Below are positions 1 through 59,761 of a stretch of DNA of 64,000 nucleotides, one piece after another. Below the pieces are notes generated by a model. It searched no databases, was not told the DNA's origin, and saw nothing but the letters and a program-made list of their open reading frames with translations. The first letter of the stretch is position 1. Every line of letters starts with the position of its first letter. A program made the translations under genes and the position numbers. The stretch comes from Acutalibacteraceae bacterium (GTDB taxonomy: Bacteria > Bacillota > Clostridia > Oscillospirales > Acutalibacteraceae): the NCBI GenBank assembly GCA_045659145.1, contig JAZOWI010000023.1, positions 3,669 through 67,668 on the forward strand, read 5' to 3'.

Positions 1-134
1 AGCCCGTGGCGGTTAGCAAAATCCACACAGTAATCACTGATTCGCGCCGTGTCACCGGAGCCGTGAGGAATGGCACAGATTTCCTCAAAATAATGGAACA
101 CCCTAAAAGGGAGTAATTCACTCAGTTTCCCCAT
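1..134 (-). CDS. PepD-like aminoacyl-histidine dipeptidase (peptidase M20), N-terminal 44 codons only; gene runs off the left edge
   Basis: Manual reverse translation from the ATG at 132-134 gives MGKLSELLPFRVFHYFEEICAIPHGSGDTARISDYCVDFANRHG. This resembles the conserved PepD N-terminus (F..IC.IPH.S). GGGAGG RBS at 143-148, 8 nt upstream. Absent from the ORF track because it is truncated. Confidence 0.5.
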   Translation of the reverse strand, partial: MGKLSELLPFRVFHYFEEICAIPHGSGDTARISDYCVDFANRHG

Positions 135-202
135 CGGCGTTACCTCCCAAAACAGAAATTATAGGATTATTGTATCATAGTTGTCTTTGTTTAGCAAGGA
201 AT

Positions 203-244
203 AAAAAGAATTTACCCCCGAAGCATCCACGCTCCGGGGGTAAA
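203..244 (-). terminator. Intrinsic terminator downstream of the ACT-domain gene
   Basis: 10-bp stem TTTACCCCCG (211-220) / CGGGGGTAAA (235-244). On the minus strand it is followed by a T-rich run (complement of 203-210). Confidence 0.55.
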
Positions 245-255
245 GCCAGTCACCT

Positions 256-687
256 TTACAGTTTGTCTACGTCTTCATCGGTGATGAGATGGAATCCTGC
301 CGCCTCCAACGCCGCCTCCGCAGCAGCGTTATCCGCCACACGCAGCACCACGTACGCGTGCTTCTCGGTGCGGGCCATAAAAGCATAGAGGTATTCCATA
401 TTAATGCCGGACTCATCCAACACCTGTAACGCTTTGGACAGTTTACCGGGGGCATCGCCGATCTTGACACCCACCACCTCGGTAATCTTAATTAGATAAC
501 CTTGCTCACTCAGCGTGTTGTAAGCGGTCTCATTATCGTTGACGATAAGCCGCAGAATACCGAAATCACGGGTATCCGCGATAGACAGAGCGCGCAGATT
601 CACATTGTGACCAGCCAAGGTTTCGGTGATATTCACCAGGGTGCCCTGCTTATTCTCCACGAATACAGTCAATTGTTTTAACGACAT
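256..687 (-). CDS. Stand-alone ACT-domain protein (two ACT-like halves)
   Basis: MSLKQLTVFVENKQGTLVNITETLAGHNVNLRALSIADTRDFGILRLIV is a typical ACT fold signature. The ATG at 685-687 has a GGGGAG RBS. The track start at 711 is a TTG overlapping the paaK stop and is less likely. The position 20 nt after paaK matches the common paaK-ACT gene pair. Confidence 0.85.
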   Translation of the reverse strand: MSLKQLTVFVENKQGTLVNITETLAGHNVNLRALSIADTRDFGILRLIVNDNETAYNTLSEQGYLIKITEVVGVKIGDAPGKLSKALQVLDESGINMEYLYAFMARTEKHAYVVLRVADNAAAEAALEAAGFHLITDEDVDKL

Positions 688-707
688 AACTGTTCTCCCC
701 TTTCTAA

Positions 708-2018
708 TCAATCGTGCAATTTACGCTTATCAATGACGCGGACCGCCTTGCCTTCACTGCGGACAATGCTCTTGGGTGCCACCAGATGCACCTTGGGATT
801 GATGCCCAACATAGTCTTCATAGCATCCGCCAACGCCCGCTCCTGCTCAGTGACACCGCTGACGGTATCGGTGAACTTATCAGGATTCATCTCCACATTC
901 ACATCGAAGGTGTCGTTATTGCCCACACGATCCACCACAATCTGGTAGTTGGGCTCATAGCCGTCTTTCAGCAGGACCGTCTCGATCTGGCTGGGGAACA
1001 CATTCACACCGCGGATGATCATCATATCGTCACTGCGACCCATAGGTTTCGCCATCTTGATAAGGGTACGTCCGCAGGAGCATTTCTTACGGCTGAGCAC
1101 ACAGATATCACGGGTGCGATAACGAAGCAAAGGGAACGCTTCTTTGTCCAAGCTGGTGAACACCAATTCACCCTTACTTCCCTCCGAGAGCACCTCTCCC
1201 GTATCGGGATCGATGATCTCCGCCAAGAAGTGATCTTCATTGATATGCATACCCGACTGTTCACAGCACTCAAAAGAAACACCGGGGCCGGAGGTTTCGG
1301 TTAATCCGTAAATGTCGTACGCTTTAATGCCCAGCGTTTTCTCAATGTTTCTACGCATCTCCTCAGTCCAGGGCTCGGCACCGAAAATACCGGCTTTCAG
1401 CGGAATCTGATCCGGTACAATGCCTTGTTCTTTGATATACTCACCGATATAAGCGGCATAAGACGGGGTGCAGCACAAAATGGTTGCAGACAGATCCTGC
1501 ATAAACTGCACCTGACGCTCTGTGTTGCCGGAAGACATAGGCAGAGTCAAGGAGCCTACCTTATGAGAACCGCCGTGCAATCCGGCACCGCCGGTGAACA
1601 AACCGTAACCATAGGCCACCTGCACCACGTCCTCTTCGGTGCCGCCAGCTGCCACGATAGCGCGGGCACAGCAATCCTCCCACAGATCAACATCGTGCTG
1701 GGTGTAGAATGCCACCACACGGCGACCGGTGGTGCCGGAGGTAGACTGAATACGGACACAGTCTTTCAGCGGTTTACCCAGCAGCCCGTAGGGATAGGCA
1801 TCTCGCAGGTCTGCCTTGGTTAGAAAGGGCAATTTGTACAGATCTTCGATACCATGGATGTCGTCGGGAGTAACCCCCTTCTCCTCCATCAACGCGCGAT
1901 AGTAAGGGACGTTATCCCATACATGCTTGACCTGCTTAATCAACTTTTCAGACTGGAGCTTTTTGATTTCTTCCACGGGCATGGTTTCAATTTCTTTTTG
2001 ATAATAGCGCTGTTCCAT
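708..2018 (-). CDS. paaK: Phenylacetate-CoA ligase (PaaK family adenylate-forming enzyme)
   Basis: 436 aa. The N-terminus MEQRYYQKEIETMPVEEIKKLQSEKLIKQVKHVWDNVPYYRALMEEKGVTPDDI..LPFLTKADLRDAYPYGLL, the STSGTTG P-loop and the YGLTE motif are characteristic of PaaK. AAAGGA RBS. Confidence 0.9.
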   Translation of the reverse strand: MEQRYYQKEIETMPVEEIKKLQSEKLIKQVKHVWDNVPYYRALMEEKGVTPDDIHGIEDLYKLPFLTKADLRDAYPYGLLGKPLKDCVRIQSTSGTTGRRVVAFYTQHDVDLWEDCCARAIVAAGGTEEDVVQVAYGYGLFTGGAGLHGGSHKVGSLTLPMSSGNTERQVQFMQDLSATILCCTPSYAAYIGEYIKEQGIVPDQIPLKAGIFGAEPWTEEMRRNIEKTLGIKAYDIYGLTETSGPGVSFECCEQSGMHINEDHFLAEIIDPDTGEVLSEGSKGELVFTSLDKEAFPLLRYRTRDICVLSRKKCSCGRTLIKMAKPMGRSDDMMIIRGVNVFPSQIETVLLKDGYEPNYQIVVDRVGNNDTFDVNVEMNPDKFTDTVSGVTEQERALADAMKTMLGINPKVHLVAPKSIVRSEGKAVRVIDKRKLHD

Positions 2019-2065
2019 TTGTTTTCATCCTTTCTGCAAGTAAAAATGGGGCGCGCGAAGTGCAG

Positions 2066-2342
2066 ATAAACAAAAACGTCCTCTGCATTCCCCTGTCGGA
2101 ATACAGAGGAAGAGAAAAATCCCGTGGGACCACCTCTATTTACCGCCATCTCACGATAACGGCCTCCGAGTGCTGACACACCCTTGTCGATGTAACGGTC
2201 GAACCCGTTTAGCCTACACAGTTTCCCTTCAACTAACAACTCACGGAATGAATTCACCGACTTTACACTGCTGCATTCCACCAACCGCAACTCTCTGAAA
2301 GTGATATTTTCGGATACTGGTTTCCGTTCAAACGTCTTTACG
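2066..2342 (-). promoter_or_regulatory. T-box riboswitch leader, specifier UUC (Phe), with terminator/antiterminator
   Basis: Read on the minus strand. The specifier loop is ACCAGUAU / UGAA-UUC-A (UUC at 2250-2252). AG bulge AGAGAG (2291-2296). Distal loop GGUUGGUGGAAU (2275-2286). F-box CCGUUA (2193-2198). T-box AAAUAGAGGUGGUCCCACGG (2121-2141). 12-bp terminator stem (2080-2109) plus U-run. AGAGG of the T-box can pair with CCUCU of the terminator 5' arm. Confidence 0.8.
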
Positions 2343-2348
2343 GATAGT

Positions 2349-2377
2349 ATTCTAGCACTGATTTTTGAGAAAGTCAA
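2349..2377 (-). promoter_or_regulatory. Sigma-A type promoter driving the T-box/paaK/ACT unit
   Basis: TTGACT (complement of 2372-2377), a 17-nt spacer, then TAGAAT (complement of 2349-2354). It lies immediately after the iorB stop codon. Confidence 0.7.
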
Positions 2378-2394
2378 TAGTTTTGGGGGGAGAT

Positions 2395-2973
2395 TTATGC
2401 ATTGTATCCCAGATCGAAAGCTTTTTTATTCATCTCTACAAACTTCGGTGCCACTGTATTCTCAATAGCACTAATCCAGCGTTCGTAAGGGATATCAAAA
2501 CACTTAGCAGCACGCCCCATCAGCACAATGTTTACTGCTTTGGACGAACCTGCCTGCTGAGCCAGAGCCAGCGCATCCAGTGCATCCACCTGCAACCCTT
2601 TGCCGGTCAGTTCGTCCAGCACCCCCTCCGGATAAGTGGCGGCACCGATAATCACCGGCATAGGATCGATCTGCTGGGTGTTGACGATGATGCGTCCATC
2701 CTTATTCAGATACTTGGCATAGCGAGCCGCCTCCAATTTCTCAAAGGCGATGATCACATCTGCCTCTCCTTCTGTGACGATGGGAGAATACACCTTATCA
2801 CCGAAGCGCACGTAGGTGACTACCGAGCCGCCACGCTGACTCATACCGTGAACCTCACTGACCTTCACGTCATAACCCTCATCCACCAAAAGACGACCCA
2901 ACAGTTTAGAGGCCAGCAGACTACCCTGCCCGCCCACACCGACGATCATCACACTTGTGGTTTTCATAGTCAT
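2395..2973 (-). CDS. iorB: Indolepyruvate/arylpyruvate ferredoxin oxidoreductase, beta subunit
   Basis: 192 aa. MIVGVGGQGSLLASKLLG nucleotide-binding-like motif and the size and position after iorA are typical of IorB. The start could be the ATG at 2973 or 2967 (AAGGAGG RBS 4 or 10 nt upstream). Confidence 0.88.
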   Translation of the reverse strand: MTMKTTSVMIVGVGGQGSLLASKLLGRLLVDEGYDVKVSEVHGMSQRGGSVVTYVRFGDKVYSPIVTEGEADVIIAFEKLEAARYAKYLNKDGRIIVNTQQIDPMPVIIGAATYPEGVLDELTGKGLQVDALDALALAQQAGSSKAVNIVLMGRAAKCFDIPYERWISAIENTVAPKFVEMNKKAFDLGYNA

Positions 2974-2982
2974 CTTTCCTCC

Positions 2983-4707
2983 TTACACGATCGCATCAAA
3001 GGCGCACAGTTGTTTACACACACCGCAACCCACGCACAGAGTGGCATCCACCACAGCCTTGCCATCCTTCATGCTGATGGCAGGGCAGCCAAGGGTCATA
3101 CACCGCTTGCAGGACTTACACTTATCGGCTTCCACTTTAAGTGGCGGCAACGCCTTCACCGATTTTAAAAGCACACAGGGGCGGCGGGAAATGATCACCG
3201 AGGGCTCCTCAGTGGCCAACTCTTCCTTAATCGCCGTGTCGCAGGCTTTCAGGTCGTAAGGATCCACCACGCGGACACGGTTGATGCCCAACGCCCGACA
3301 CAACGCCTCCAAATCTACCTTAGCGGCAGGATCGCCCTTAATATTAAAACCGGTGGTGGGATTATGCTGATGTCCCGTCATACCGGTAATGGAGTTATCC
3401 AGAATGATGACCGTAGAATTAGTGGCGTTGTAAGCCACATTCACCAGACCGGTCATACCAGAATGCATAAAGGTGGAGTCTCCGATAACCGCCACCGATT
3501 TACCCTCAGCTTCGGCACCGCGCGCCAGATTGAAGCCGTGCAGACCCGATACCGAAGCACCCATACACAGAGTGGAATCCAAGGCGTTGAGGGGCGGCAC
3601 CGCGCCTAGGGTATAACAGCCGATGTCACCTAAGGTAGTGATCTTGTTCTTCGCCAGCGTGTAGAACAGACCACGATGGGGACAACCGGCACACATCATA
3701 GGCGGACGGTTAGGAATGGGCGAATCCGCGCTGACACATGCCTTTGCTTCTTTCCCAAAGGCCTCGGCAACGGTCTGCTGAGAGAACTCACCCAGCAGGG
3801 AAAATTGCTCCTTACCCACCACATCTAACCCTAAGGCACGCACGTGGTTCTCAATAAAAGGATCCAACTCCTCAACAACGTACAGTTTTTTCACCTTGGC
3901 GGCGAATTCCTTAATAAGTTCTACCGGTAAAGGATAGGGCATACCGATCTTGAGAATAGAAACCGTATCACCCAGCGCCTCTTTTACATACAAATAGGAA
4001 CTGCCGGAGGTGATGATGCCGATCTCATCGGAGTGCATCTCCACTGTGTTGAAGGCACAATCTTCTGCCAACTGACGCAACGCCTCGGTGCGCTGTTCCA
4101 CCACAGGATGACGCTTGATGGCATTGCCGGGCATCATTATGTATTTCTGGGGATTCTTAACATATTCCTTAATAGGAGCCGCTTCCCGCTCTCCCACCTC
4201 CACAATGGACTGACTGTGGGCAATACGGGTGCACATACGCAGCAGCACGGGCGTATCGTATTCCTCAGACAACTGAAAGGCTGCCTTGGCATAGGCATAG
4301 GCCTCCGCCGAGTCCGCCGGTTCCAGCATCGGCACCTTCGCTGCCATCGCATAGTGGCGGCTGTCCTGCTCATTCTGGGAAGAGTGCATAGCCGGGTCAT
4401 CCGCCACGCAGATGACCATACCACCGGTGACACCGGTATACGACAAGGTGAACAGCGGATCCGCCGCCACATTCAGGCCCACGTGCTTCATGGCGCAGGC
4501 CGAACGGGCTCCCGCCAAGGAGGCACCGAAGGCCACCTCGCAGGCCACTTTTTCATTGGGGGCCCACTCGCTGTGAATATCCTCATATTTCGCCAAGAAC
4601 TCGGTGATCTCTGTGGAGGGGGTGCCGGGATAGCTGGACACCACCTGCAAACCGCCGTCATACAGACCGGCGGCTACCGCTTGGTTACCAATCATTAATT
4701 TCTTCAT
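2983..4707 (-). CDS. iorA: Indolepyruvate/arylpyruvate ferredoxin oxidoreductase, alpha subunit (TPP plus 2x[4Fe-4S])
   Basis: MKKLMIGNQAVAAGLYDGG..YPGTPSTEI, the TPP motif GDSTFMHSG, and C-terminal ferredoxin motifs CKSCKRC..GCP and CVGCGVCKQLC. The start is trimmed to the ATG at 4705-4707 because the 54-codon track extension overlaps the upstream gene. Confidence 0.9.
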   Translation of the reverse strand: MKKLMIGNQAVAAGLYDGGLQVVSSYPGTPSTEITEFLAKYEDIHSEWAPNEKVACEVAFGASLAGARSACAMKHVGLNVAADPLFTLSYTGVTGGMVICVADDPAMHSSQNEQDSRHYAMAAKVPMLEPADSAEAYAYAKAAFQLSEEYDTPVLLRMCTRIAHSQSIVEVGEREAAPIKEYVKNPQKYIMMPGNAIKRHPVVEQRTEALRQLAEDCAFNTVEMHSDEIGIITSGSSYLYVKEALGDTVSILKIGMPYPLPVELIKEFAAKVKKLYVVEELDPFIENHVRALGLDVVGKEQFSLLGEFSQQTVAEAFGKEAKACVSADSPIPNRPPMMCAGCPHRGLFYTLAKNKITTLGDIGCYTLGAVPPLNALDSTLCMGASVSGLHGFNLARGAEAEGKSVAVIGDSTFMHSGMTGLVNVAYNATNSTVIILDNSITGMTGHQHNPTTGFNIKGDPAAKVDLEALCRALGINRVRVVDPYDLKACDTAIKEELATEEPSVIISRRPCVLLKSVKALPPLKVEADKCKSCKRCMTLGCPAISMKDGKAVVDATLCVGCGVCKQLCAFDAIV

Positions 4708-4724
4708 ATCTATGTACCTCTCTG

Positions 4725-6362
4725 TTACGACTTGTTCTGGAAGTCCACCAAACCTTCTCCGCCGTACATCTTGCGCAGACGGGGTTTTTCGATCTTTCCG
4801 GTGGGGTTGCGGGGCACATCCGCGAAGATGATACGGCGCGGGCGCTTGTAGCGAGGCAGGTCCAAACAAAACTCGTTGATCTCCTCCTCTGTGCAGGTCA
4901 TATCCTTCTTGATCTCGATGATCGCCGCAGCGATCTCGCCCAAGCGGGGATCCGGCAGACCGATGACCGCCACATCCTTGATCTTGTTGTGGGCCGCGAG
5001 GAAGTTCTCGATCTGTACCGGATACAGATTCTCACCACCGGTGATGATGACGTCTTTCTTACGGTCTACCAGATAGACAAAGCCGTCCTCGTCCTGCATC
5101 GCCATATCACCGGTAAACAGCCAGCCGTCCCGCAGGGTGTCGGCGGTAGCGGCGGCATCCCGATAGTAGCAAACCATCACACCGGGACCTTTGAGGCACA
5201 ATTCGCCCACGGCGCCCTGCGCCACTTCCTTGCCCTCAGGGTCCACGATCTTGATCTCCCAACCGTAGCCGGGGATACCGATGGCACCCACCTTGTGCAC
5301 ATTTTCCACACCCAAGTGCACAGCACCGGGGCCGATGGACTCGGATAGGCCGTAGTTGGTATCGTACTGCTGGTCAGGGAAATATTCCAGCCAACGCTTG
5401 ATAAGGCTCTGGGGCACCGGCTGGGCACCGATGTGCATCAGGCGCCACTGTTGCAGGTCAAAGTCTTTTAAGGACAATTCGCCGCTGTCCAACGCATTAA
5501 GGATTTCCTGTGCCCACGGCACCAATAACCACACGATGGTGCATTTCTCCTGACTGGTGGCGGTGAGAATGTGATGGGCCTTGGCGCCCTTGAGAATGAC
5601 CGCCTTAGAGCCCGCCAACAAACTGCCGAACCAATGCATCTTGGCACCCGTATGGTACAGAGGCGGAATACAGAGGAAGCAATCCTCACGGGACTGACCG
5701 TGGTGTGCCTGCTCTACCCGACAGGAGTGGATGAGACTGCGATGCTTGTGCAGGATGGCCTTGGGGAAACCCGTGGTACCCGAGGAGAAATAGATGGCGG
5801 CATCGTCCTCCTCCTCTAATGTGCAAGAAGGGAACATCCCCGAACACTCGGAAATAAGGTCGTTGTAATCATCCGCAAAAGCGGGACAGCCTGCGCCGAA
5901 GTAGATCAGGTTGCATCGCTGACCAATCTTGTCCGCCACCGCCTCCACACGACCGATGAACTCGGTGCCGAAGATGAGCACGTCCGCCTCAGCCAGTTCC
6001 AGACAGTAGTCGATCTCATCCGACGAATAGCGATAGTTCAGCGGCACCGCCAGAGCGCCCGTCTTCAATATACCGAAATAGATAGGCAACCAGTCAATGC
6101 AGTTCATCAGCAGGATGGCCACTTTCTTGCCCTTGCCGATGCCGTTCTGCTTTAACATATTTGCCAGACGGTTGGCCTTTTCGTTGAACACCTCCCAGGT
6201 GATCTCCCGACGGTAATGTCGGGCGCGGGGGGTGGATTCCACCAATTCATATTCATGCCACGTGGACTTGCGGGTCTCCGGCTGTTCAGGGTTGATTTCC
6301 ACCAAAGACACGTCCTTAGCATAGTCCTTCGCGTTTCTCTCCAATAAATGTACAATGGTCAT
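4725..6362 (-). CDS. AMP-dependent acyl-CoA synthetase/ligase (ANL superfamily), substrate unknown
   Basis: AMP-binding motif YFSSGTTGFPKA, plus YGLSE and GWLFTGD..DGF.Y..DRKKD motifs. The ATG at 6362 has a GAGGAG RBS 6 nt upstream. Confidence 0.85.
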   Translation of the reverse strand: MTIVHLLERNAKDYAKDVSLVEINPEQPETRKSTWHEYELVESTPRARHYRREITWEVFNEKANRLANMLKQNGIGKGKKVAILLMNCIDWLPIYFGILKTGALAVPLNYRYSSDEIDYCLELAEADVLIFGTEFIGRVEAVADKIGQRCNLIYFGAGCPAFADDYNDLISECSGMFPSCTLEEEDDAAIYFSSGTTGFPKAILHKHRSLIHSCRVEQAHHGQSREDCFLCIPPLYHTGAKMHWFGSLLAGSKAVILKGAKAHHILTATSQEKCTIVWLLVPWAQEILNALDSGELSLKDFDLQQWRLMHIGAQPVPQSLIKRWLEYFPDQQYDTNYGLSESIGPGAVHLGVENVHKVGAIGIPGYGWEIKIVDPEGKEVAQGAVGELCLKGPGVMVCYYRDAAATADTLRDGWLFTGDMAMQDEDGFVYLVDRKKDVIITGGENLYPVQIENFLAAHNKIKDVAVIGLPDPRLGEIAAAIIEIKKDMTCTEEEINEFCLDLPRYKRPRRIIFADVPRNPTGKIEKPRLRKMYGGEGLVDFQNKS

Positions 6363-6397
6363 AACGAACTCCTCAAACATAAAAAACTACAACTCAT

Positions 6398-6426
6398 ACT
6401 TTACCACTTTAAAGCGCGTATGTCAA
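6398..6426 (-). promoter_or_regulatory. Sigma-A type promoter for the acyl-CoA ligase-iorAB operon
   Basis: The minus strand reads TTGACA-17 nt-TAAAGT (complement of 6421-6426 and 6398-6403). The spacer contains CGCTTTAAAGTG. Confidence 0.6.
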
Positions 6427-6440
6427 CCTTAAACTGCCTG

Positions 6441-6476
6441 TTTTTTGCGATTTTTTGAAGTTTTTTACAATTTTTT
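6441..6476. repeat. Four phased T6 tracts (10-bp period)
   Basis: TTTTTTgcgaTTTTTTgaagTTTTTTacaaTTTTTT, with tracts starting at 6441, 6451, 6461 and 6471. Confidence 0.9.
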
Positions 6477-6486
6477 CAAAAACCTA

Positions 6487-6515
6487 TTGACATATTCGCT
6501 TTAAAGTGGTAAAGT
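6487..6515 (+). promoter_or_regulatory. Sigma-A type promoter for the Na+/solute symporter gene
   Basis: TTGACA (6487-6492), a 17-nt spacer, then TAAAGT (6510-6515). It is a near-identical inverted copy of the 6398-6426 promoter. Confidence 0.6.
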
Positions 6516-6568
6516 GTGCTTAATCGATTTTTCGCTTTAAACCATTAAATCAGAAAGGCGGATACAAA

Positions 6569-8191
6569 ATGGAACTGCAACTTACCAAATTGGCGGCGAC
6601 TTCCACCACCGCGTGGATCACCCTACCCATGCTCCTCTGCTTTTTTGGGCTGATGATCGGCGTTGGACTGGCCTGCCGCAAACACACCACCAACGTGGAC
6701 AGCTTTGTGCTGGGCGGCCGCTCGGTAGGTCCATGGCTTACGGCATTTGCTTTCGGCACCTCCTACTTCTCGGCAGTGATCTTCGTGGGCTATGCAGGAC
6801 AGTTCGGGTGGAACTTCGGTCTTGCATCCACCTGGATCGGTCTGGGCAACGCCTTCATCGGGTCGCTGCTGGCGTGGTCGGTCCTGGGACGGCGCACTCG
6901 CGTGATGACCCAGCATCTGGGCTCTAAGACCATGCCGGATTTCTTCGAAAAGCGGTACAATTCCAAAAAACTCAAAGTGGTAGCCTCTTTCATCGTATTC
7001 GTGTTTCTTATCCCCTACACCGCCTCTCTCTACAACGGTCTCTCTTCCTTATTTAATAACGTGTTCTCCATCCCCTACTGGGTGGTGGTTGTCGTTATGG
7101 CCGTGCTGACAGGTGTGTATGTCATCTTCGGTGGCTATATGGCTACTGCCATCAACGACTTCATTCAAGGCATCATTATGCTGGTGGGCATCGTCACGGT
7201 GATTGCATCGGTACTGGCGGATAACGGCGGTCTCTCTGCCGCTGTGGAGGCACTGAACACCCATCCTCAGGCCGGCACCGATTTCACTTCCATTATGGGC
7301 CCCAATCCCATTTTCTTGCTGTTTGTGGTGCTGCTGACCTCTCTGGGCACCTGGGGACTGCCCCAAATGGTGGGTAAGTTCTACTCCATCAAGGATGAGG
7401 ATTCCATAAAAAAAGGCACCATTATCTCCACCATCTTCGCTATTGTGGTGGCAGGCGGCTGTTACTTCTTAGGTGGCTTTGGTCGACTGTATCACAAGGA
7501 TATGCTGGCAGGTGGCTTTATCTCCGAGACAGGCGCCGTTCTGTTTGACAAAGTCATTCCCACTATGCTCAAAGACTTAGCTCCCGTAGTGGTGGCGCTC
7601 ATCATAGTGCTGGTGCTGGCGGCCTCTATGTCCACTCTTTCCTCCTTGGTGCTGACCTCCTCCTCCACTCTGACACTGGATGTGGTTAAGCCGCTGGCAG
7701 AACGCAAAAAGGCAGTATCCGAGCAGCGCAGCGTGCTGATCATGCGGCTGTTCATCGTATTCTTCATCGCTATCTCCGCAGTCATCGCTATTCTTAAAGA
7801 CAGCATTTGGTCCGGCTCGGTGTTTATTGCTCAAATGATGGGCGTGTCCTGGGGGGCACTGGCCGGTGCCTTCCTGGCCCCCTTCCTCTACGGTCTGTAC
7901 TGCAAAAAGATCAGCCGCGCTGCCGTGGCTGTCAGCTTCGCCTTCGGCACGGGGTTGGAAATCGTGCAGTTGTGCATCAGCGTCGGCTGGTTGTCGGTGA
8001 AAGGGATTCCCGTGCTGAGTTTCATCTTCACCAATTCCCTCTATTCCGGCGTATTTGCGATGATAGGCGGTCTGGTATTGGTGCCTATCGTAAGCCTGTT
8101 TACCCGGCGTTCCTGCCCCGCTAACGTGGAAGAAAAGTTCTCTTGCTACGACGCGCAGGTGATCACCAGTCAAAAGGTAACGCTCGGTTAA
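6569..8191 (+). CDS. Sodium:solute symporter family (SSS) transporter
   Basis: 540 aa with about 13 predicted TM segments. The N-terminal signature FVLGGRSVGPWLTAFAFGTSYFSAVIFVGYAG is typical of SSS (PutP/PanF-like) permeases. AAAGG RBS. Confidence 0.85.
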   Translation: MELQLTKLAATSTTAWITLPMLLCFFGLMIGVGLACRKHTTNVDSFVLGGRSVGPWLTAFAFGTSYFSAVIFVGYAGQFGWNFGLASTWIGLGNAFIGSLLAWSVLGRRTRVMTQHLGSKTMPDFFEKRYNSKKLKVVASFIVFVFLIPYTASLYNGLSSLFNNVFSIPYWVVVVVMAVLTGVYVIFGGYMATAINDFIQGIIMLVGIVTVIASVLADNGGLSAAVEALNTHPQAGTDFTSIMGPNPIFLLFVVLLTSLGTWGLPQMVGKFYSIKDEDSIKKGTIISTIFAIVVAGGCYFLGGFGRLYHKDMLAGGFISETGAVLFDKVIPTMLKDLAPVVVALIIVLVLAASMSTLSSLVLTSSSTLTLDVVKPLAERKKAVSEQRSVLIMRLFIVFFIAISAVIAILKDSIWSGSVFIAQMMGVSWGALAGAFLAPFLYGLYCKKISRAAVAVSFAFGTGLEIVQLCISVGWLSVKGIPVLSFIFTNSLYSGVFAMIGGLVLVPIVSLFTRRSCPANVEEKFSCYDAQVITSQKVTLG

Positions 8192-8205
8192 CACACAACA
8201 AAAAA

Positions 8206-8241
8206 AGCGGGTCACAGCTCAGGCTGTGACCCGCTTTTTTA
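8206..8241. terminator. Bidirectional intrinsic terminator between convergent genes
   Basis: AGCGGGTCACAGC (8206-8218) / GCTGTGACCCGCT (8223-8235), flanked by an A-run upstream and a T-run downstream. Confidence 0.8.
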
Positions 8242-8261
8242 TTTACGAATTACCACTCGAA

Positions 8262-11200
8262 TTAATCGTCCCACTCGAATTCATCATCGTTGACATCCAG
8301 CTTTTCATCATAACTTCTGCCCACGATGTCGGCATATACAGTAACCTCTTCGCCGTCCTTCTCAATGACGTAATAGGGGCGGGCATAAATGACCGTTCCT
8401 CTGTGCGCCTCAGGGATGTTCTTGATACGCACTGCAAACTTGGCGTTGTCGGCACCTGCCTCATATACCTTTTCCGCAAAGATATCGAGCACCTTACCGC
8501 TACCGGAACCGATCTCAGGATTCGTCAACTTCATCTGTTCCTCGTCAACACCGATGGTCACACGGTTGGTTACCACGGCACCCATTTTGATCAGTTTGTA
8601 CTCAACACCATCAATGGTCACGGTGGCGTTGGTATAATCACCGATGTGCGCCTCATTCTTGGTGATGCCGGACACCTTCACGTCGAACAGGAAGCCGACG
8701 CCCATCTTGCCGTCCACGATATCCATCACGCTGGAACTCTCGGCGGTAATCAGGCCTTCGGTATCCTCCTCGTCACCCAAAGTGAGCAGGTTGTTCGCAT
8801 TGATGAAAGCAACCAGCTCATCGGCAAACTTCTTCTGACCGGCAGCAGAGGGGTGCCAACCGGCGCCGGCGGTGTTCTGGGTCAGCTGCAACGAATACAG
8901 ACCCTCAGCCGCGCCGCCGTTTGTCTCAATGAGCTCGGCAATTCTGGTATTGTCGTCGCTCTTCATCATATTGTAGATCCAAATGATCTTGGAGTTGGGG
9001 TTCTTGGCACGTACCAGATCCAGGAACTCCTGATAGCCGGTCAGACGCTGCTCAACCGTAATGCCCTTTTCAGTCTCCATCGCAATGTCGTTGGTACCCA
9101 AAGCGATGACGATCAGGTTGGGCTCACGGTTGGTGAAGTTGTACTGAGTGGTACGATCATACTGATAGCGCTGATAGGGATAGAAGGTATGCATATTGGG
9201 ATCCTGCCAGCCATACTTGGCGCCGATACCGGAGTAGCATACATCGGAGAAGTCCACACCCAGCGCCTTGGCGGTCAGGTAGGGATACGCCGCGGTGGCA
9301 TCCTGCCACTTGGGAGAATCGGCCTGTTCATTGCCGGAAACACCCAGCGCACCGTAACCGGTGGAGATGGAGTCACCGATGAACTCGATGAAGAAGGTGT
9401 TGTCGGAGGGCTTGGTGCCGATGGTACCGTTCATAACAATAGAACCAATACCCACCTCGGCGCCACGATGCTCGGTCTGGCGATAGATCTCGAAGGTGTG
9501 GTTGCCCGCAGGCAGATCCTCGGCAATGGTCAGGGTGGTGTTGCCGGTGGCAGTAATGCGGCACTGGGCACGCTCCTTCTGCACACCATCTACGATCACG
9601 GTGAAATACACACCGCCATAGGTGGCATCGGTATTCTTAATGGAGTTGGTGACGAAGTTGACAGCCACATCACCTTCGCAGTTGGCGGTGAACTCAATGC
9701 CGGAGGCAGAGAAGTCCAGCCACAGAACACCGTTCTTCATATAGTTACGGCCCTGCTGCTTGATGCCGCTCATCAGCTGGCTAATGGGAGTGGCATACTC
9801 ATCCAGGAACTGGAAGTCGCCGAACACCGCATTGTGGTCGGAGGCCGCGGGCGCTGCTACCAGCGCATCGGTAACAGTCACATCATACAGATGAGTCACC
9901 ATAGAATTGTAGAAGATGTGGTCGATGTAACGACCGGAGGTGGAGTCGGTCAGACCGGCCTCGGTCAACTTGCTGTAAGAAGCGGTCTCCTCGCCGGAGC
10001 AGTTGTAGTCACCGCCGCACAGCACGGGCATCTTGTGAGTAGTGGACAATTCGTTGAGGATCTCAGCGATCTCAGCAGTCTGGAACTGACGCCAGTAGCC
10101 GTCACCCTCAGCGGCCACACCGTCACCGTTGACATCGGAGGTGCCGGTCAGAGAACCGGCATCGGTGTGGGTGGCACAGGCAATGAACTTCTCGCCGGTG
10201 GCGATCACCTCGAAGAAGCCCACGTTGACATAACGCATGCCCTGCTTACCCCAACGGGTGTTGGTCAAGCCGTGCAGCTCGGTATCCAACAGACGAACGG
10301 TTTTCGTGTTGTACACCAGCGTGGTGTACAGCAGACCGTTGTTCTGAGAATCCAAACTGGCGGTCTCAGCGAAGGCATAGTCCGTCAAATCGTTCCGGAA
10401 GTAAGTGTACCAGTTGCCGGAGAACTCCTCCAAAGCGATAACGTCAGGCTGATAGTACTTGATCATAGCAATGGCCTTAGGCGCACGCACGTCGATGGTG
10501 GCGGTCTCACTGCTCCAATCATAACCGCCATTAGCCAGGTCCTTATCCACCAGCACATTGTAGGTCATCATGCGGATGTCGGCGCCGGTGGTCTTATCCT
10601 TCTGGGCCGTGCCCTGATAGCCGGAGGTTGCTTTCTCCATCGTAATGTCGTCATAGAAAACATCGCCGCCATCAGTGACACCTTGAGCAGGATGGATTAC
10701 CAGAGTAGTGTTTGCTCCGGAATTGAAGGGGATCTGGAAAGTCTGCCACGCAGTATGATTAGCATCAAAATAATACTTATCCGGATTGATCTTATTATTG
10801 TGATCGCCATCCGGACTTATATAGAGGCGCGCCTGGCCGCCGGAAGCAGCCAGTTTAGCCTTAAATGTAATAACATAATCGGTATTGGCCTCAACGGTAA
10901 TGGTCTGAGATACGAACTGGCTATATTTGTTATTACGTTTTCCCTGCAGGGCATAAGAACCGGAAGCCACCTCGGTAGAGGTGATAACGGCATCGCCAGA
11001 ATACTTCAGATTCCAACCGGTGAGGTCGCCGGTCTCAAAGTCACCATTGGTGATATAGCCATCGAAAGAGGGTTCAACAACCTCTTTCTTCGCGACGACG
11101 ATATCATCAACACACAGGTAGGTTTCAGTGGCCGCAGGGGTTGCAATACCACCAATGCCCAAACGGACAGACGTATTACTGCCACTGTTAAAGGTGAAAA

Positions 11201-12137
11201 CCACCTTAGTCCACGTACCCTTCGTGCTGTCCAAATCTGTATAAGCGATGTGCTGTGCCGTATTGGTGCTGGAAGTAGTAGCTACACAAACACGCATTTG
11301 ATTGGCAGTAGAAACATTCGTGCTCTTATACCACAAAGTCACCACATAATCCGTATCCACCTCAACAGTAATGTCCTGCTGCGCAGTATAAACCGTATTA
11401 CGATGAGGAACTGTCGCGCCATAAGAACCGATGTGTGCATTTGAGCTAATTGCGCATTTTTGAGAACTCTGAGAAGACCAAGGTGTAATCGCGCCGGTCT
11501 CAAAATCACCATTAGCCAAAAGATTGTCGCCGACAACAGGAATATCCGGCACCTCGGGCTCAGCCTCCACCTTAGTCATCACGATATCATCAACATGCAA
11601 GTAGTTGGCCTGACCACTGCCGGACATGCTACCAAAGCCCAAACGAACCGTAGTATAAGAGCCGGAATTAAGGTTTACAGTTACCTTAGTCCAACTCGTT
11701 TGCGTATAAGGGAGCGTAACGGGGGAAGTGATTTGAGTTGCCGCACCTGCATTGGTACCATTGGTTTCCCAAACAGCAAAAACCATATCACGCAGCGCTT
11801 CGGTTGTACCAGTGGCGCCGTCACTAATATACCAGAAAGTAATTTCGTAATCGGTGTTCATTTCTACGGTAATATCTTGATATGCCGTAAAGGTCTGCGC
11901 ACGGGTGGGTACCGAAGCACCGTATGTGCCCGTATAAGCATAATCAGTGGTAGCAGACACTTCTTCACTTCCACTACCGGAAATCCAACCGGTTATATTA
12001 CCACTTTCAAAATCACCGTTGATGACCAGATTAGTCTGTGCCGCCAACAGGGTGACGATGCCGCTCAGGGGCAGTACCGTGCACAGCAGGGCAACGGCCG
12101 CCAGAACGGCTAACAATTTGCGAATCTTGCTCTTCAT
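8262..12137 (-). CDS. Secreted multidomain protein: signal peptide, 3 CBM4/9-like modules, EEP (endonuclease/exonuclease/phosphatase) domain, CE2-like beta-sandwich plus SGNH esterase, unassigned C-terminal domain
   Basis: CBM signature NGDFE(S/T)G..(T)GW occurs three times. EEP motifs are MMTYNVL, VIALEE and SDHNAVFGDF. SGNH blocks are FIGDSISTGYG, ALGTNDI and GWHPS, preceded by a jelly-roll as in CE2 esterases. Start set to the second ATG (12137) for RBS spacing (AAGGAGA). Confidence 0.8.
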   Translation of the reverse strand: MKSKIRKLLAVLAAVALLCTVLPLSGIVTLLAAQTNLVINGDFESGNITGWISGSGSEEVSATTDYAYTGTYGASVPTRAQTFTAYQDITVEMNTDYEITFWYISDGATGTTEALRDMVFAVWETNGTNAGAATQITSPVTLPYTQTSWTKVTVNLNSGSYTTVRLGFGSMSGSGQANYLHVDDIVMTKVEAEPEVPDIPVVGDNLLANGDFETGAITPWSSQSSQKCAISSNAHIGSYGATVPHRNTVYTAQQDITVEVDTDYVVTLWYKSTNVSTANQMRVCVATTSSTNTAQHIAYTDLDSTKGTWTKVVFTFNSGSNTSVRLGIGGIATPAATETYLCVDDIVVAKKEVVEPSFDGYITNGDFETGDLTGWNLKYSGDAVITSTEVASGSYALQGKRNNKYSQFVSQTITVEANTDYVITFKAKLAASGGQARLYISPDGDHNNKINPDKYYFDANHTAWQTFQIPFNSGANTTLVIHPAQGVTDGGDVFYDDITMEKATSGYQGTAQKDKTTGADIRMMTYNVLVDKDLANGGYDWSSETATIDVRAPKAIAMIKYYQPDVIALEEFSGNWYTYFRNDLTDYAFAETASLDSQNNGLLYTTLVYNTKTVRLLDTELHGLTNTRWGKQGMRYVNVGFFEVIATGEKFIACATHTDAGSLTGTSDVNGDGVAAEGDGYWRQFQTAEIAEILNELSTTHKMPVLCGGDYNCSGEETASYSKLTEAGLTDSTSGRYIDHIFYNSMVTHLYDVTVTDALVAAPAASDHNAVFGDFQFLDEYATPISQLMSGIKQQGRNYMKNGVLWLDFSASGIEFTANCEGDVAVNFVTNSIKNTDATYGGVYFTVIVDGVQKERAQCRITATGNTTLTIAEDLPAGNHTFEIYRQTEHRGAEVGIGSIVMNGTIGTKPSDNTFFIEFIGDSISTGYGALGVSGNEQADSPKWQDATAAYPYLTAKALGVDFSDVCYSGIGAKYGWQDPNMHTFYPYQRYQYDRTTQYNFTNREPNLIVIALGTNDIAMETEKGITVEQRLTGYQEFLDLVRAKNPNSKIIWIYNMMKSDDNTRIAELIETNGGAAEGLYSLQLTQNTAGAGWHPSAAGQKKFADELVAFINANNLLTLGDEEDTEGLITAESSSVMDIVDGKMGVGFLFDVKVSGITKNEAHIGDYTNATVTIDGVEYKLIKMGAVVTNRVTIGVDEEQMKLTNPEIGSGSGKVLDIFAEKVYEAGADNAKFAVRIKNIPEAHRGTVIYARPYYVIEKDGEEVTVYADIVGRSYDEKLDVNDDEFEWDD

Positions 12138-59544: not shown

Positions 59545-59620
59545 TGGCAGGGGCAGAAGGACTTGAACCCTCGGCACGCGGTTTTGGAGACCGCTGCTCT
59601 ACCAACTGAGCTATACCCCT
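59545..59620 (-). tRNA. tRNA-Trp (anticodon CCA)
   Basis: 76 nt: AGGGGTATAGCTCAGTTGGTAGAGCAGCGGTCTCCAAAACCGCGTGCCGAGGGTTCAAGTCCTTCTGCCCCTGCCA. 7-bp acceptor stem, anticodon loop CTCCAAA, T-loop GGTTCAAGTCC, encoded CCA end. Confidence 0.9.
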
Positions 59621-59684
59621 ATATGGGCGGGCGCCGCGTACGCGGGCCGCTATGTGAACAGACCGAAATGGTCTGAGTGGACAC

Positions 59685-59761
59685 TGGTGGGCCTTCAGGG
59701 ACTTGAACCCGGGACCGACCGGTTATGAGCCGGTTGCTCTAACCAACTGAGCTAAAGGCCC
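59685..59761 (-). tRNA. tRNA with CAT anticodon, probably tRNA-Ile2 (lysidine-modified) rather than elongator Met
   Basis: 77 nt: GGGCCTTTAGCTCAGTTGGTTAGAGCAACCGGCTCATAACCGGTCGGTCCCGGGTTCAAGTCCCTGAAGGCCCACCA. The anticodon loop CTCATAA and D-arm resemble Bacillus tRNA-Ile(CAU). It lacks initiator features. Confidence 0.85.

Follow-up and report, generated by a model that had tools for sequence, protein, structure and literature searches.

Known T-box systems and the paaK leader

T-box leaders typically govern the supply of their cognate amino acid, acting on aminoacyl-tRNA synthetase, biosynthesis and uptake genes (PMC2494555, PMC7778990). Here we describe a T-box leader placed ahead of genes for a PaaK-type ligase (paaK) and an ACT-domain protein in a contig of an Acutalibacteraceae bacterium (JAZOWI010000023.1), of which we analysed a stretch of 64,000 nucleotides, hereafter the window. 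With the T-box family, of which the tyrS and pheS leaders of B. subtilis are examples, this leader shares the K-turn, the specifier loop with its S-turn, the AG bulge, the distal loop and Stem III, as well as the 14-nt T-box sequence, the UGGN bulge, the competing antiterminator and terminator, a UUC specifier that obeys the C-rule, and, presumably, the mode of transcriptional attenuation; Stem II and the putative Stem IIA/B pseudoknot with its F-box are placed in it by the Rfam alignment. It differs in its targets, which are a PaaK-type ligase and an ACT protein rather than an aminoacyl-tRNA synthetase, a shikimate or prephenate gene, or a transporter. In addition, the antiterminator helix A2 pair beside the bulge is A-U in this clade, in contrast to the G.U wobble of many T-boxes, and in the window itself the bulge carries CCC in place of ACC, while helix A2 contains a C.U mismatch. 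We consider it probable that positions 2377-2068 (minus strand) hold a promoter and a tRNA-Phe-specific attenuating T-box that gates paaK-ACT, with the ligase supplying phenylalanine.

The enzymes themselves resemble described systems. Bacteroides clusters of indolepyruvate:ferredoxin oxidoreductase (IOR) and arylacetate-CoA ligase, and the aryl-acid pathway of methanogens, in which IOR acts as a synthase, comprise the same set of IorAB plus an AMP-forming PaaK-like ligase; a B. thetaiotaomicron enzyme (PDB 4R1L) is among the nearest solved structures to PaaK, and 2F06 is the nearest to the ACT protein. The window's locus differs by a second, FadD-like ligase (acs), by a symporter of the sodium:solute symporter (SSF) family, and by its Gram-positive Oscillospirales host. 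Clusters that combine IOR with PaaK-like ligases are common in gut anaerobes, and the usual view treats them as producers of phenylacetate and related host-active metabolites, although the direction in which they run is unsettled. That IOR may work anabolically together with an AMP-forming arylacetate-CoA ligase has already been suggested (PMC13285125), and the new part of the present work is the regulatory evidence: whereas none is given for the Bacteroides and methanogen clusters, the T-boxes described here would tie expression to uncharged tRNA-Phe or tRNA-Tyr.

Two further bodies of work are relevant. Phenylacetate-dependent synthesis of phenylalanine in rumen bacteria was reportedly described by Allison in 1965 and by Amin and Onodera in 1997. 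These two studies appear as references 48 and 49 in PMC7356843. The reductive carboxylation of phenylacetate to phenylalanine shares its habitat with our loci (anaerobes of the ruminant gut) and also the proposed chemistry, in which the phenylacetate skeleton gains CO2. That physiological work assigned no genes, whereas the paaK T-box offers candidate genes and a regulatory signal from sequence alone. Finally, T-box families are known to diversify by duplication and specifier change (PMC2494555), and the same pattern is suggested in two relatives, where a Phe (UUC) and a Tyr (UAC) leader stand near each other (L013 and L026). The paralogous leaders described here differ from those families in splitting a presumed aryl-acid salvage set, with the ligase under Phe control and a symporter or a whole operon under Tyr control.

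Architecture of the leader and the proposed switch

The Rfam T-box model RF00230 matches positions 2341..2103 of the minus strand over its full length (model positions 1-219) with 97.9 bits, above the gathering score of 93 (E 2.6e-20). This match is the sole T-box of the 64-kb window, and a rescan of 1-12000 at E<=1 added none. As judged from its sequence, the leader RNA is an ordinary T-box that would work by transcriptional attenuation. The leader and the two genes behind it comprise the following parts.

2349..2377, minus strand: sigma-70-type promoter, with the -35 box TTGACT at 2377-2372, a 17-nt spacer and the TG-extended -10 box TAGAAT at 2354-2349
2103..2341, minus strand: T-box leader RNA, a full-length RF00230 match with Stem I, Stem II, Stem IIA/B, Stem III and the antiterminator, with covariation
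2239..2335, minus strand: Stem I, placed by the Rfam alignment and motif coordinates
2250..2252, minus strand: specifier UUC (Phe), with GAA before it, A2249 after it and then the UUCCG helix
2237-2209, minus strand: Stem II, placed by the Rfam alignment
2207-2193, minus strand: Stem IIA/B with the F-box CCGUUA, placed by the Rfam alignment
2142..2164, minus strand: Stem III (helix 9), with 95.7% of alignment cells paired and 6 of 7 pairs changed on both sides
2105..2141, minus strand: T-box sequence and antiterminator, placed by the RF00230 alignment, relatives and motif coordinates
2068..2110, minus strand: intrinsic terminator, with a 13-bp stem at 2110-2079, a 6-nt loop and the U-tract CGUUUUUGUUU at 2078-2068
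708..2018, minus strand: paaK, a PaaK-family aryl-acid (phenylacetate)-CoA ligase of 436 aa, with the ribosome-binding site AAAGGA at 2033-2028
256..711, minus strand: ACT-domain-pair protein of 151 aa (Pfam ACT_8, E 2e-26; PDB 2F06, E 2.6e-27)

The motifs of Stem I were all found within 2333-2244. They are the K-turn at its base, which begins at 2333, the two S-turn halves of the specifier loop (AGUA at 2318-2315, inside the AGUA element at 2320-2312, and GAA at 2255-2253), the AG bulge AGAGAG at 2296-2291 and the distal loop GGUUGGUGGAAU at 2286-2275. Towards the 3′ end, the conserved T-box sequence AAAUAGAGGUGGUCCCACGG occupies 2141-2122 (minus strand). In helix A1 of the antiterminator, GAGG (2136-2133) pairs with CCUC (2109-2106); the 7-nt bulge UGGUCCC (2132-2126) carries UGGU at 2132-2129, and in helix A2, ACGGG (2125-2121) stands opposite CUCUU (2114-2110). 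Because the 3′ strands of the antiterminator (2114-2106) share bases with the 5′ arm of the terminator (2110-2098), the two structures are mutually exclusive. The terminator dominates minimum-free-energy folds, and 96.5% of its cells are paired across the aligned leaders.

We tested the structure by mapping the Rfam pairs onto an alignment of 33 homologous leaders, with partners slid along the sequence and 500 shuffles as controls. Standard pairs occupied 85.9% of cells, against 35-52% with the partners slid; 27 of the 46 pairs had changes on both sides, against 7-14; and no shuffle (0/500) matched the observed pairing values. In helices 1-2 of Stem I, for instance, 99-100% of cells are paired, with compensatory changes between CGG/CCG and CAG/CUG. 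The middle helices of Stem I reach 67-76% on this alignment, which was made with MAFFT and is not structure-guided, and Stem II reaches just 64% on it, though it is aligned by Rfam. The CGG/CCG pairs and the CCGUUA of Stem IIA/B are invariant in the 33 leaders and so carry no covariation information. The minimum-free-energy fold of the whole leader does not give Stem I and was not used as evidence; this is expected, because the T-box fold is stabilised by tRNA.

The leader promoter matches the consensus at 10 of 12 positions, has TG ahead of its -10 box and is kept as TTGAC..TGCTA.AAT in strain-level relatives and in those of 93-95% identity. Its -35 box lies just 17 nt from the iorB stop codon, and a scan of 1900-2600 gave no terminator besides that of the T-box, and hence none between iorB and the leader. 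Since no terminator follows iorB, transcripts that read through from acs-iorAB would also pass the T-box leader. The gap that separates the iorB stop codon from the paaK start codon is 376 nt long (2394-2019). A 145-aa open reading frame overlaps it (1940-2377, minus strand), but this frame is open only in the window and one strain-level relative, while 2 to 15 stop codons interrupt each frame over the leader in 12 other relatives. As the reading frame is not conserved, we rejected it as a gene.

Most of the architecture had been anticipated by a sequence-only reading of this DNA, made without database searches. Its call of a T-box is borne out by the RF00230 score, each motif that it named was found where it had placed it, and its promoter, TTGACT-17-TAGAAT, stands, as does its view that the 145-aa frame does not code. 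Two of its claims needed small corrections: the antiterminator and the terminator do exclude each other, but the terminator stem has 13 bp rather than 12, and the gap between iorB and paaK is non-coding, as it held, but measures 376 nt rather than 375.

Since the leader belongs to the T-box family, its switch can be expected to follow the family mechanism. Transcripts from the extended -10 promoter, or read-through transcripts of acs-iorAB, would enter the leader, and the UUC specifier of Stem I would pair with the GAA anticodon. The ACCA end of an uncharged tRNA-Phe would then pair with the UGGU of the bulge and stabilise the antiterminator, so that the polymerase would go on into paaK-ACT, whereas with charged tRNA the 13-bp terminator would form and transcription would stop at the U-tract. 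The route served by this switch would lead from phenylacetate to phenylacetyl-CoA (PaaK), from there to phenylpyruvate by the ferredoxin-dependent reductive carboxylation of IorAB, and by transamination to phenylalanine. Because the ligase would be induced by phenylalanine starvation, it would supply phenylalanine, and a catabolic role is disfavoured because the induction would come at the wrong time. We therefore infer that PaaK and IOR run from phenylacetate to phenylalanine, as aryl-acid salvage; that PaaK is an AMP-forming ligase, that the host clade consists of ruminant-gut Oscillospirales and that genes for fibre degradation abound in the window were also counted in favour of the anabolic direction. 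For the ACT protein, a part as a regulatory partner that binds amino acids is probable, although speculative.

Relatives, specifiers and alternative readings

A PaaK search of genome contigs gave at least 594 relatives, of which the best 80 were analysed. These are species-level loci (79-93% identity) in metagenome-assembled genomes (MAGs) assigned to Acutalibacteraceae, Oscillospiraceae or 'Ruminococcus', mostly from the ruminant gut; a homologous-protein search for PaaK gave matches of at least 90% identity only and did not widen the taxonomic range. The ACT gene directly follows paaK in all 80 loci, and a T-box leader stands ahead of paaK-ACT in 30 of them, with or without iorAB beside it. 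In a first arrangement, found in the window and 10 loci, acs-iorA-iorB is followed by a gap of 360-460 nt with the T-box and then by paaK-ACT. In a second, the same genes are fused with a gap of 20-50 nt, and no Rfam T-box was found in those scanned (for L010, L011, L015-17, L021-23 and L033, a regular expression was the only check). In a third, found in 20 loci, the T-box and paaK-ACT lie apart from iorAB. As the T-box is present in both the first and the third arrangement, it travels with paaK-ACT and not with iorAB. Among relatives in which paaK is fused to iorAB, or in which PaaK is at most 83% identical, no T-box precedes paaK; L068 alone has one, before acs.

Some relatives carry additional T-boxes on the same gene set. 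In L013 (3687-3932) and L026 (3666-3913), both on the plus strand, a second T-box with the Tyr specifier GAA-UAC-A lies upstream of the one for Phe, at a distance of about 2 kb; it precedes an SSF symporter (L013:4009-5565), and the Phe T-box with paaK-ACT comes next. Over their 3′ halves, the two leaders of these loci hardly differ, and a single base separates their specifiers, which suggests a duplication followed by a one-base specifier change. In L068, a T-box of 111.7 bits at 42-300 (plus strand) reads GAAA-UAC-G (Tyr) beside an unambiguous 6-bp helix and heads an operon acs-SSF-iorA-iorB-paaK-ACT that extends to about 7750. Thus, across relatives, uncharged tRNA-Phe and tRNA-Tyr would control separate parts of one aryl-acid/IOR gene set, and this combination of specifiers is the pattern expected of a salvage regulon.

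For the paaK leaders themselves, the survey of orthologous clusters that the sequence-only reading had proposed gave a Phe T-box before paaK-ACT in the 30 loci, and their specifiers could be read. UUC, the Phe triplet claimed for the window, occupies the specifier position in 30 of 31 leaders (the window and 29 of the 30 loci), in the same register as the UAC of the sisters, and UGGU is present in 31 of 31. In TBDB, UUC is the strongly preferred Phe specifier, in keeping with the 'C-rule' (PMC7778990). The L042 leader, in which an insertion and a stretch of N occur, still reads GAAUUCA. One paaK leader, at L036:5652-5902 (plus strand), has UGC (Cys) at the specifier position instead of UUC; a change in specificity, a mutation or a fault of the assembly may account for it.

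Several observations weigh against the reading of the window's leader as a working Phe switch for phenylalanine supply, and they bear on three alternatives. The sequence-only reading had singled out a different triplet in the specifier columns as one of the findings that would speak against it, and on this point the outcome is mixed: the Rfam posterior at these columns is about 0.5 in the window, and the model aligns the GAAUUCC relatives in the +1 register, without indels, so that the UUC register rests on comparative arguments. Were the specifier one base further 3′, it would be UCA or UCC (Ser), with ACA (Thr) in the sisters, and the leader would sense tRNA-Ser and be uninformative on phenylalanine. 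This is very improbable, even though cmscan places UCC in the codon columns for GAAUUCC leaders (L045, L036) and the invariant A-U pair atop the lower helix, which sets the end of the loop, keeps covariation from fixing the register. A purine 3′ of the specifier codon is a conserved T-box feature (PMC7583486), but the base after UUC is A in 18 and C in 12 of the 30 UUC leaders, a variation that would, in the shifted register, be third-position variation between two Ser codons; there, however, U would follow the codon in 31 of 31 leaders. In addition, L068, with its unambiguous lower helix, reads UAC-G, and this is the amino acid that L013 and L026 name when read in the UUC-type register; that chance alone should yield Phe and Tyr in a common register ahead of aryl-acid genes is very improbable, and Ser and Thr have no connection to PaaK, IOR or the symporter. 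Once the top A-U pair is formed, both strands of the loop have 7 nt (NNNAGUA and GAA-NNN-A), a geometry that we take to be that of the crystallised O. iheyensis glyQ Stem I (PDB 4LCK). Bacterial tRNA-Phe and tRNA-Tyr carry A73, to which UGGU is complementary by Watson-Crick pairing, whereas tRNA-Ser carries G73. Neither the window nor any of 60 scanned loci (L001-L060) contains a tRNA-Phe gene with which to compare the discriminator base; the tRNA genes of the window are tRNA-Trp(CCA) and tRNA-Met(CAU) only (59545-59761, minus strand). We retain the UUC register because of the symmetry of the loop, the 3′ A, the UAC of the sisters, the fit to the genes and the pairing of UGGU with A73. It is also improbable, if slightly less so, that the T-box is Phe-specific and working while PaaK-ACT serves some other aryl acid or product, or the removal of phenylacetate, with the adjacency of iorAB incidental. 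PaaK scores 516.5 bits against TIGR02155, below the equivalog cut-off of 646.3, so its substrate is an inferred one; its relatives include ligases of other substrates, and in the 20 genomes of the third arrangement it does not stand beside iorAB. About half of the relatives, moreover, fuse paaK-ACT to acs-iorAB without a T-box (L005, L006, L008-L011, L014-L017, L021-L023, L025, L033, L049-L053 and others), which means that T-box control is not essential to the pathway. The same fusions, however, place paaK-ACT in one operon with iorAB, the Tyr T-box of L068 covers acs, the symporter, iorAB and paaK-ACT together, T-boxes characteristically serve the supply of the cognate amino acid, and phenylacetyl-CoA has no other obvious way to relieve phenylalanine starvation.

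The third alternative concerns the window's copy rather than the family. Compared with its strain-level relatives L081 and L082, whose PaaK is 99% identical, the window's leader differs at 4 of 376 nt (2128, 2111, about 2093 and about 2040), and three of these differences fall in the antiterminator/terminator region. At 2128, in the bulge, the window has C and every relative A, which changes ACC to CCC; at 2111 it has U against G in every relative, and a C-G pair of helix A2 is thereby replaced by C.U. Neither position varies among the 32 other aligned leaders or among L081, L082 and L083. The leader of L081, with A2128 and G2111, scores 112.8 bits, so that the window has lost 15 bits. Both elements have an assigned function: the review in PMC7583486 ascribes stabilisation of the discriminator to the 3′-ACC of the bulge and places an aminoacyl sensor pair at the base of helix A2. 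The switch of this particular strain may thus be weakened. This alternative, in which the T-box is real and the function holds at the level of the family, but the two core substitutions weaken the antiterminator here to the point that paaK-ACT is mostly terminated or blind to tRNA-Phe, is unlikely, though it deserves to be taken seriously. Despite the loss, the window still exceeds the RF00230 gathering score, and the paaK and ACT reading frames are intact. The leader differs from that of the strain-level relative by 1.1%, against 2.8% for paaK (37/1311 nt); being less diverged than the coding sequence, it is under constraint in this lineage. Since conservation reaches 90% or more in about 40% of the leader columns, it is not unusual for two of four random changes to fall in such columns; U2111 also abolishes a possible 14th pair of the terminator, which partly compensates, and errors in the MAG consensus are possible.

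Taken beyond the window, the preferred reading of a Phe switch on paaK-ACT leads to a broader proposal, towards which the balance tips only slightly: a T-box regulon of ruminant-gut Oscillospirales that salvages aryl acids to aromatic amino acids, with a Phe T-box on paaK-ACT and Tyr T-boxes on an SSF symporter or on acs-SSF-iorAB-paaK-ACT. The sequence-only reading had already taken the locus as anabolic, and this deduced direction gains in probability from the occurrence of the Phe T-box with paaK-ACT in 30 other genomes and two contexts, and from the Tyr T-boxes on neighbouring genes. A T-box is in effect a built-in physiological label, marking genes that are turned on when the named amino acid is scarce, and the T-boxes for Phe and Tyr found here thus provide independent, sequence-level evidence for the biosynthetic direction. 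They extend the classes of T-box-regulated genes, make the question of IOR/PaaK direction directly testable, and point, through T-box-paaK-ACT, to candidate genes of a rumen pathway known only from labelling studies. If the proposal is true, it would identify, for the first time at the level of genes and regulation, the reductive carboxylation of phenylacetate to phenylalanine, physiologically described in the 1960s, and it would settle the synthetic direction of IOR with an AMP-forming ligase for this clade. The specifiers could then also assign substrates, namely phenylacetate for PaaK, and 4-hydroxyphenylacetate or tyrosine for acs and the symporter. In the searchable literature, we found nothing that joins a T-box to paaK, phenylacetate-CoA ligase, indolepyruvate or phenylacetate, and two surveys of T-box regulons are silent on these genes, in agreement with the earlier claim that this is not a canonical target class. 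The class paaK-ACT appears to be undescribed, although catalogues such as TBDB may list instances without comment.

Neighbouring genes and other observations

PaaK has the Pfam domains AMP-binding (PF00501) and AMP-binding_C_2 (PF14535), and its nearest solved structures are PDB 2Y27 (E 1.8e-124) and 4R1L (E 2.7e-121). The other features around the paaK-ACT unit are listed below.

211..244, minus strand: terminator closing the paaK-ACT unit, a 15-bp stem followed by UUCUUUUUAU
2395..6380, minus strand: upstream operon acs-iorA-iorB, with the promoter TTGACA-17-TAAAGT at 6426-6398
4725-6380, minus strand: acs, a FadD-like acyl-CoA synthetase (domain search)
2983-4725, minus strand: iorA, IOR alpha subunit (TIGR03336 IOR_alpha, 726.3 bits, cut-off 650.9)
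2395-2973, minus strand: iorB, IOR beta subunit (NF005325, 278.7 bits, cut-off 230)
6569..8191, plus strand: sodium:solute symporter (Pfam SSF), divergent from acs

Both IorAB subunits exceed the equivalog cut-offs for indolepyruvate:ferredoxin oxidoreductase. The start of the ACT gene overlaps the paaK stop by 4 nt (708-711), and the acs stop and iorA start share 1 nt (4725-4727); these overlapping junctions suggest translational coupling within each unit. The symporter of the window shares 67% identity with its counterpart in the L068 operon behind the Tyr T-box and 40% with the Tyr-T-box symporter of L013, and it is a candidate transporter of an aryl acid or an aromatic amino acid. No T-box precedes acs or the symporter in the window (1-12000, E<=1). 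The intergenic region between them (6381-6568) contains mirror-image promoters, both TTGACA-17-TAAAGT with TG (6487-6515 on the plus strand and 6426-6398 on the minus strand), and no riboswitch was detected in it.

Other regulatory RNAs were seen near paaK in relatives. L036, the locus with the UGC leader, also has a divergent Leu (CUC) T-box of 123.6 bits at 5518-5276 (minus strand), before a LeuA-like gene. This gene and the next one (5187-3799 and 3792-1330, minus strand) encode the LeuA-like protein and an 820-aa fusion protein in which a xylose-isomerase-like TIM barrel is joined to an AMP-binding ligase, and the pair recurs at L029:8219-12071 (plus strand); that the fusion protein may be linked to branched-chain acid salvage is no more than a guess. 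In L065, a Gut-1 RNA (RF01706, 63.6 bits) at 8054-8126 (minus strand) and a cobalamin riboswitch at 618-807 (plus strand) are unconnected to the paaK T-box.

Beyond the symporter, the minus strand of the window at 8262-28417 encodes a series of large proteins of secreted type, which carry CBM_4_9 modules, GDSL/CE2 esterase domains and choline-binding repeats, together with DUF4886, an AraC regulator and two sugar-binding proteins, and it contains long antisense shadow reading frames. This region is a locus for the degradation of plant fibre, which fits a fibre-degrading gut bacterium.

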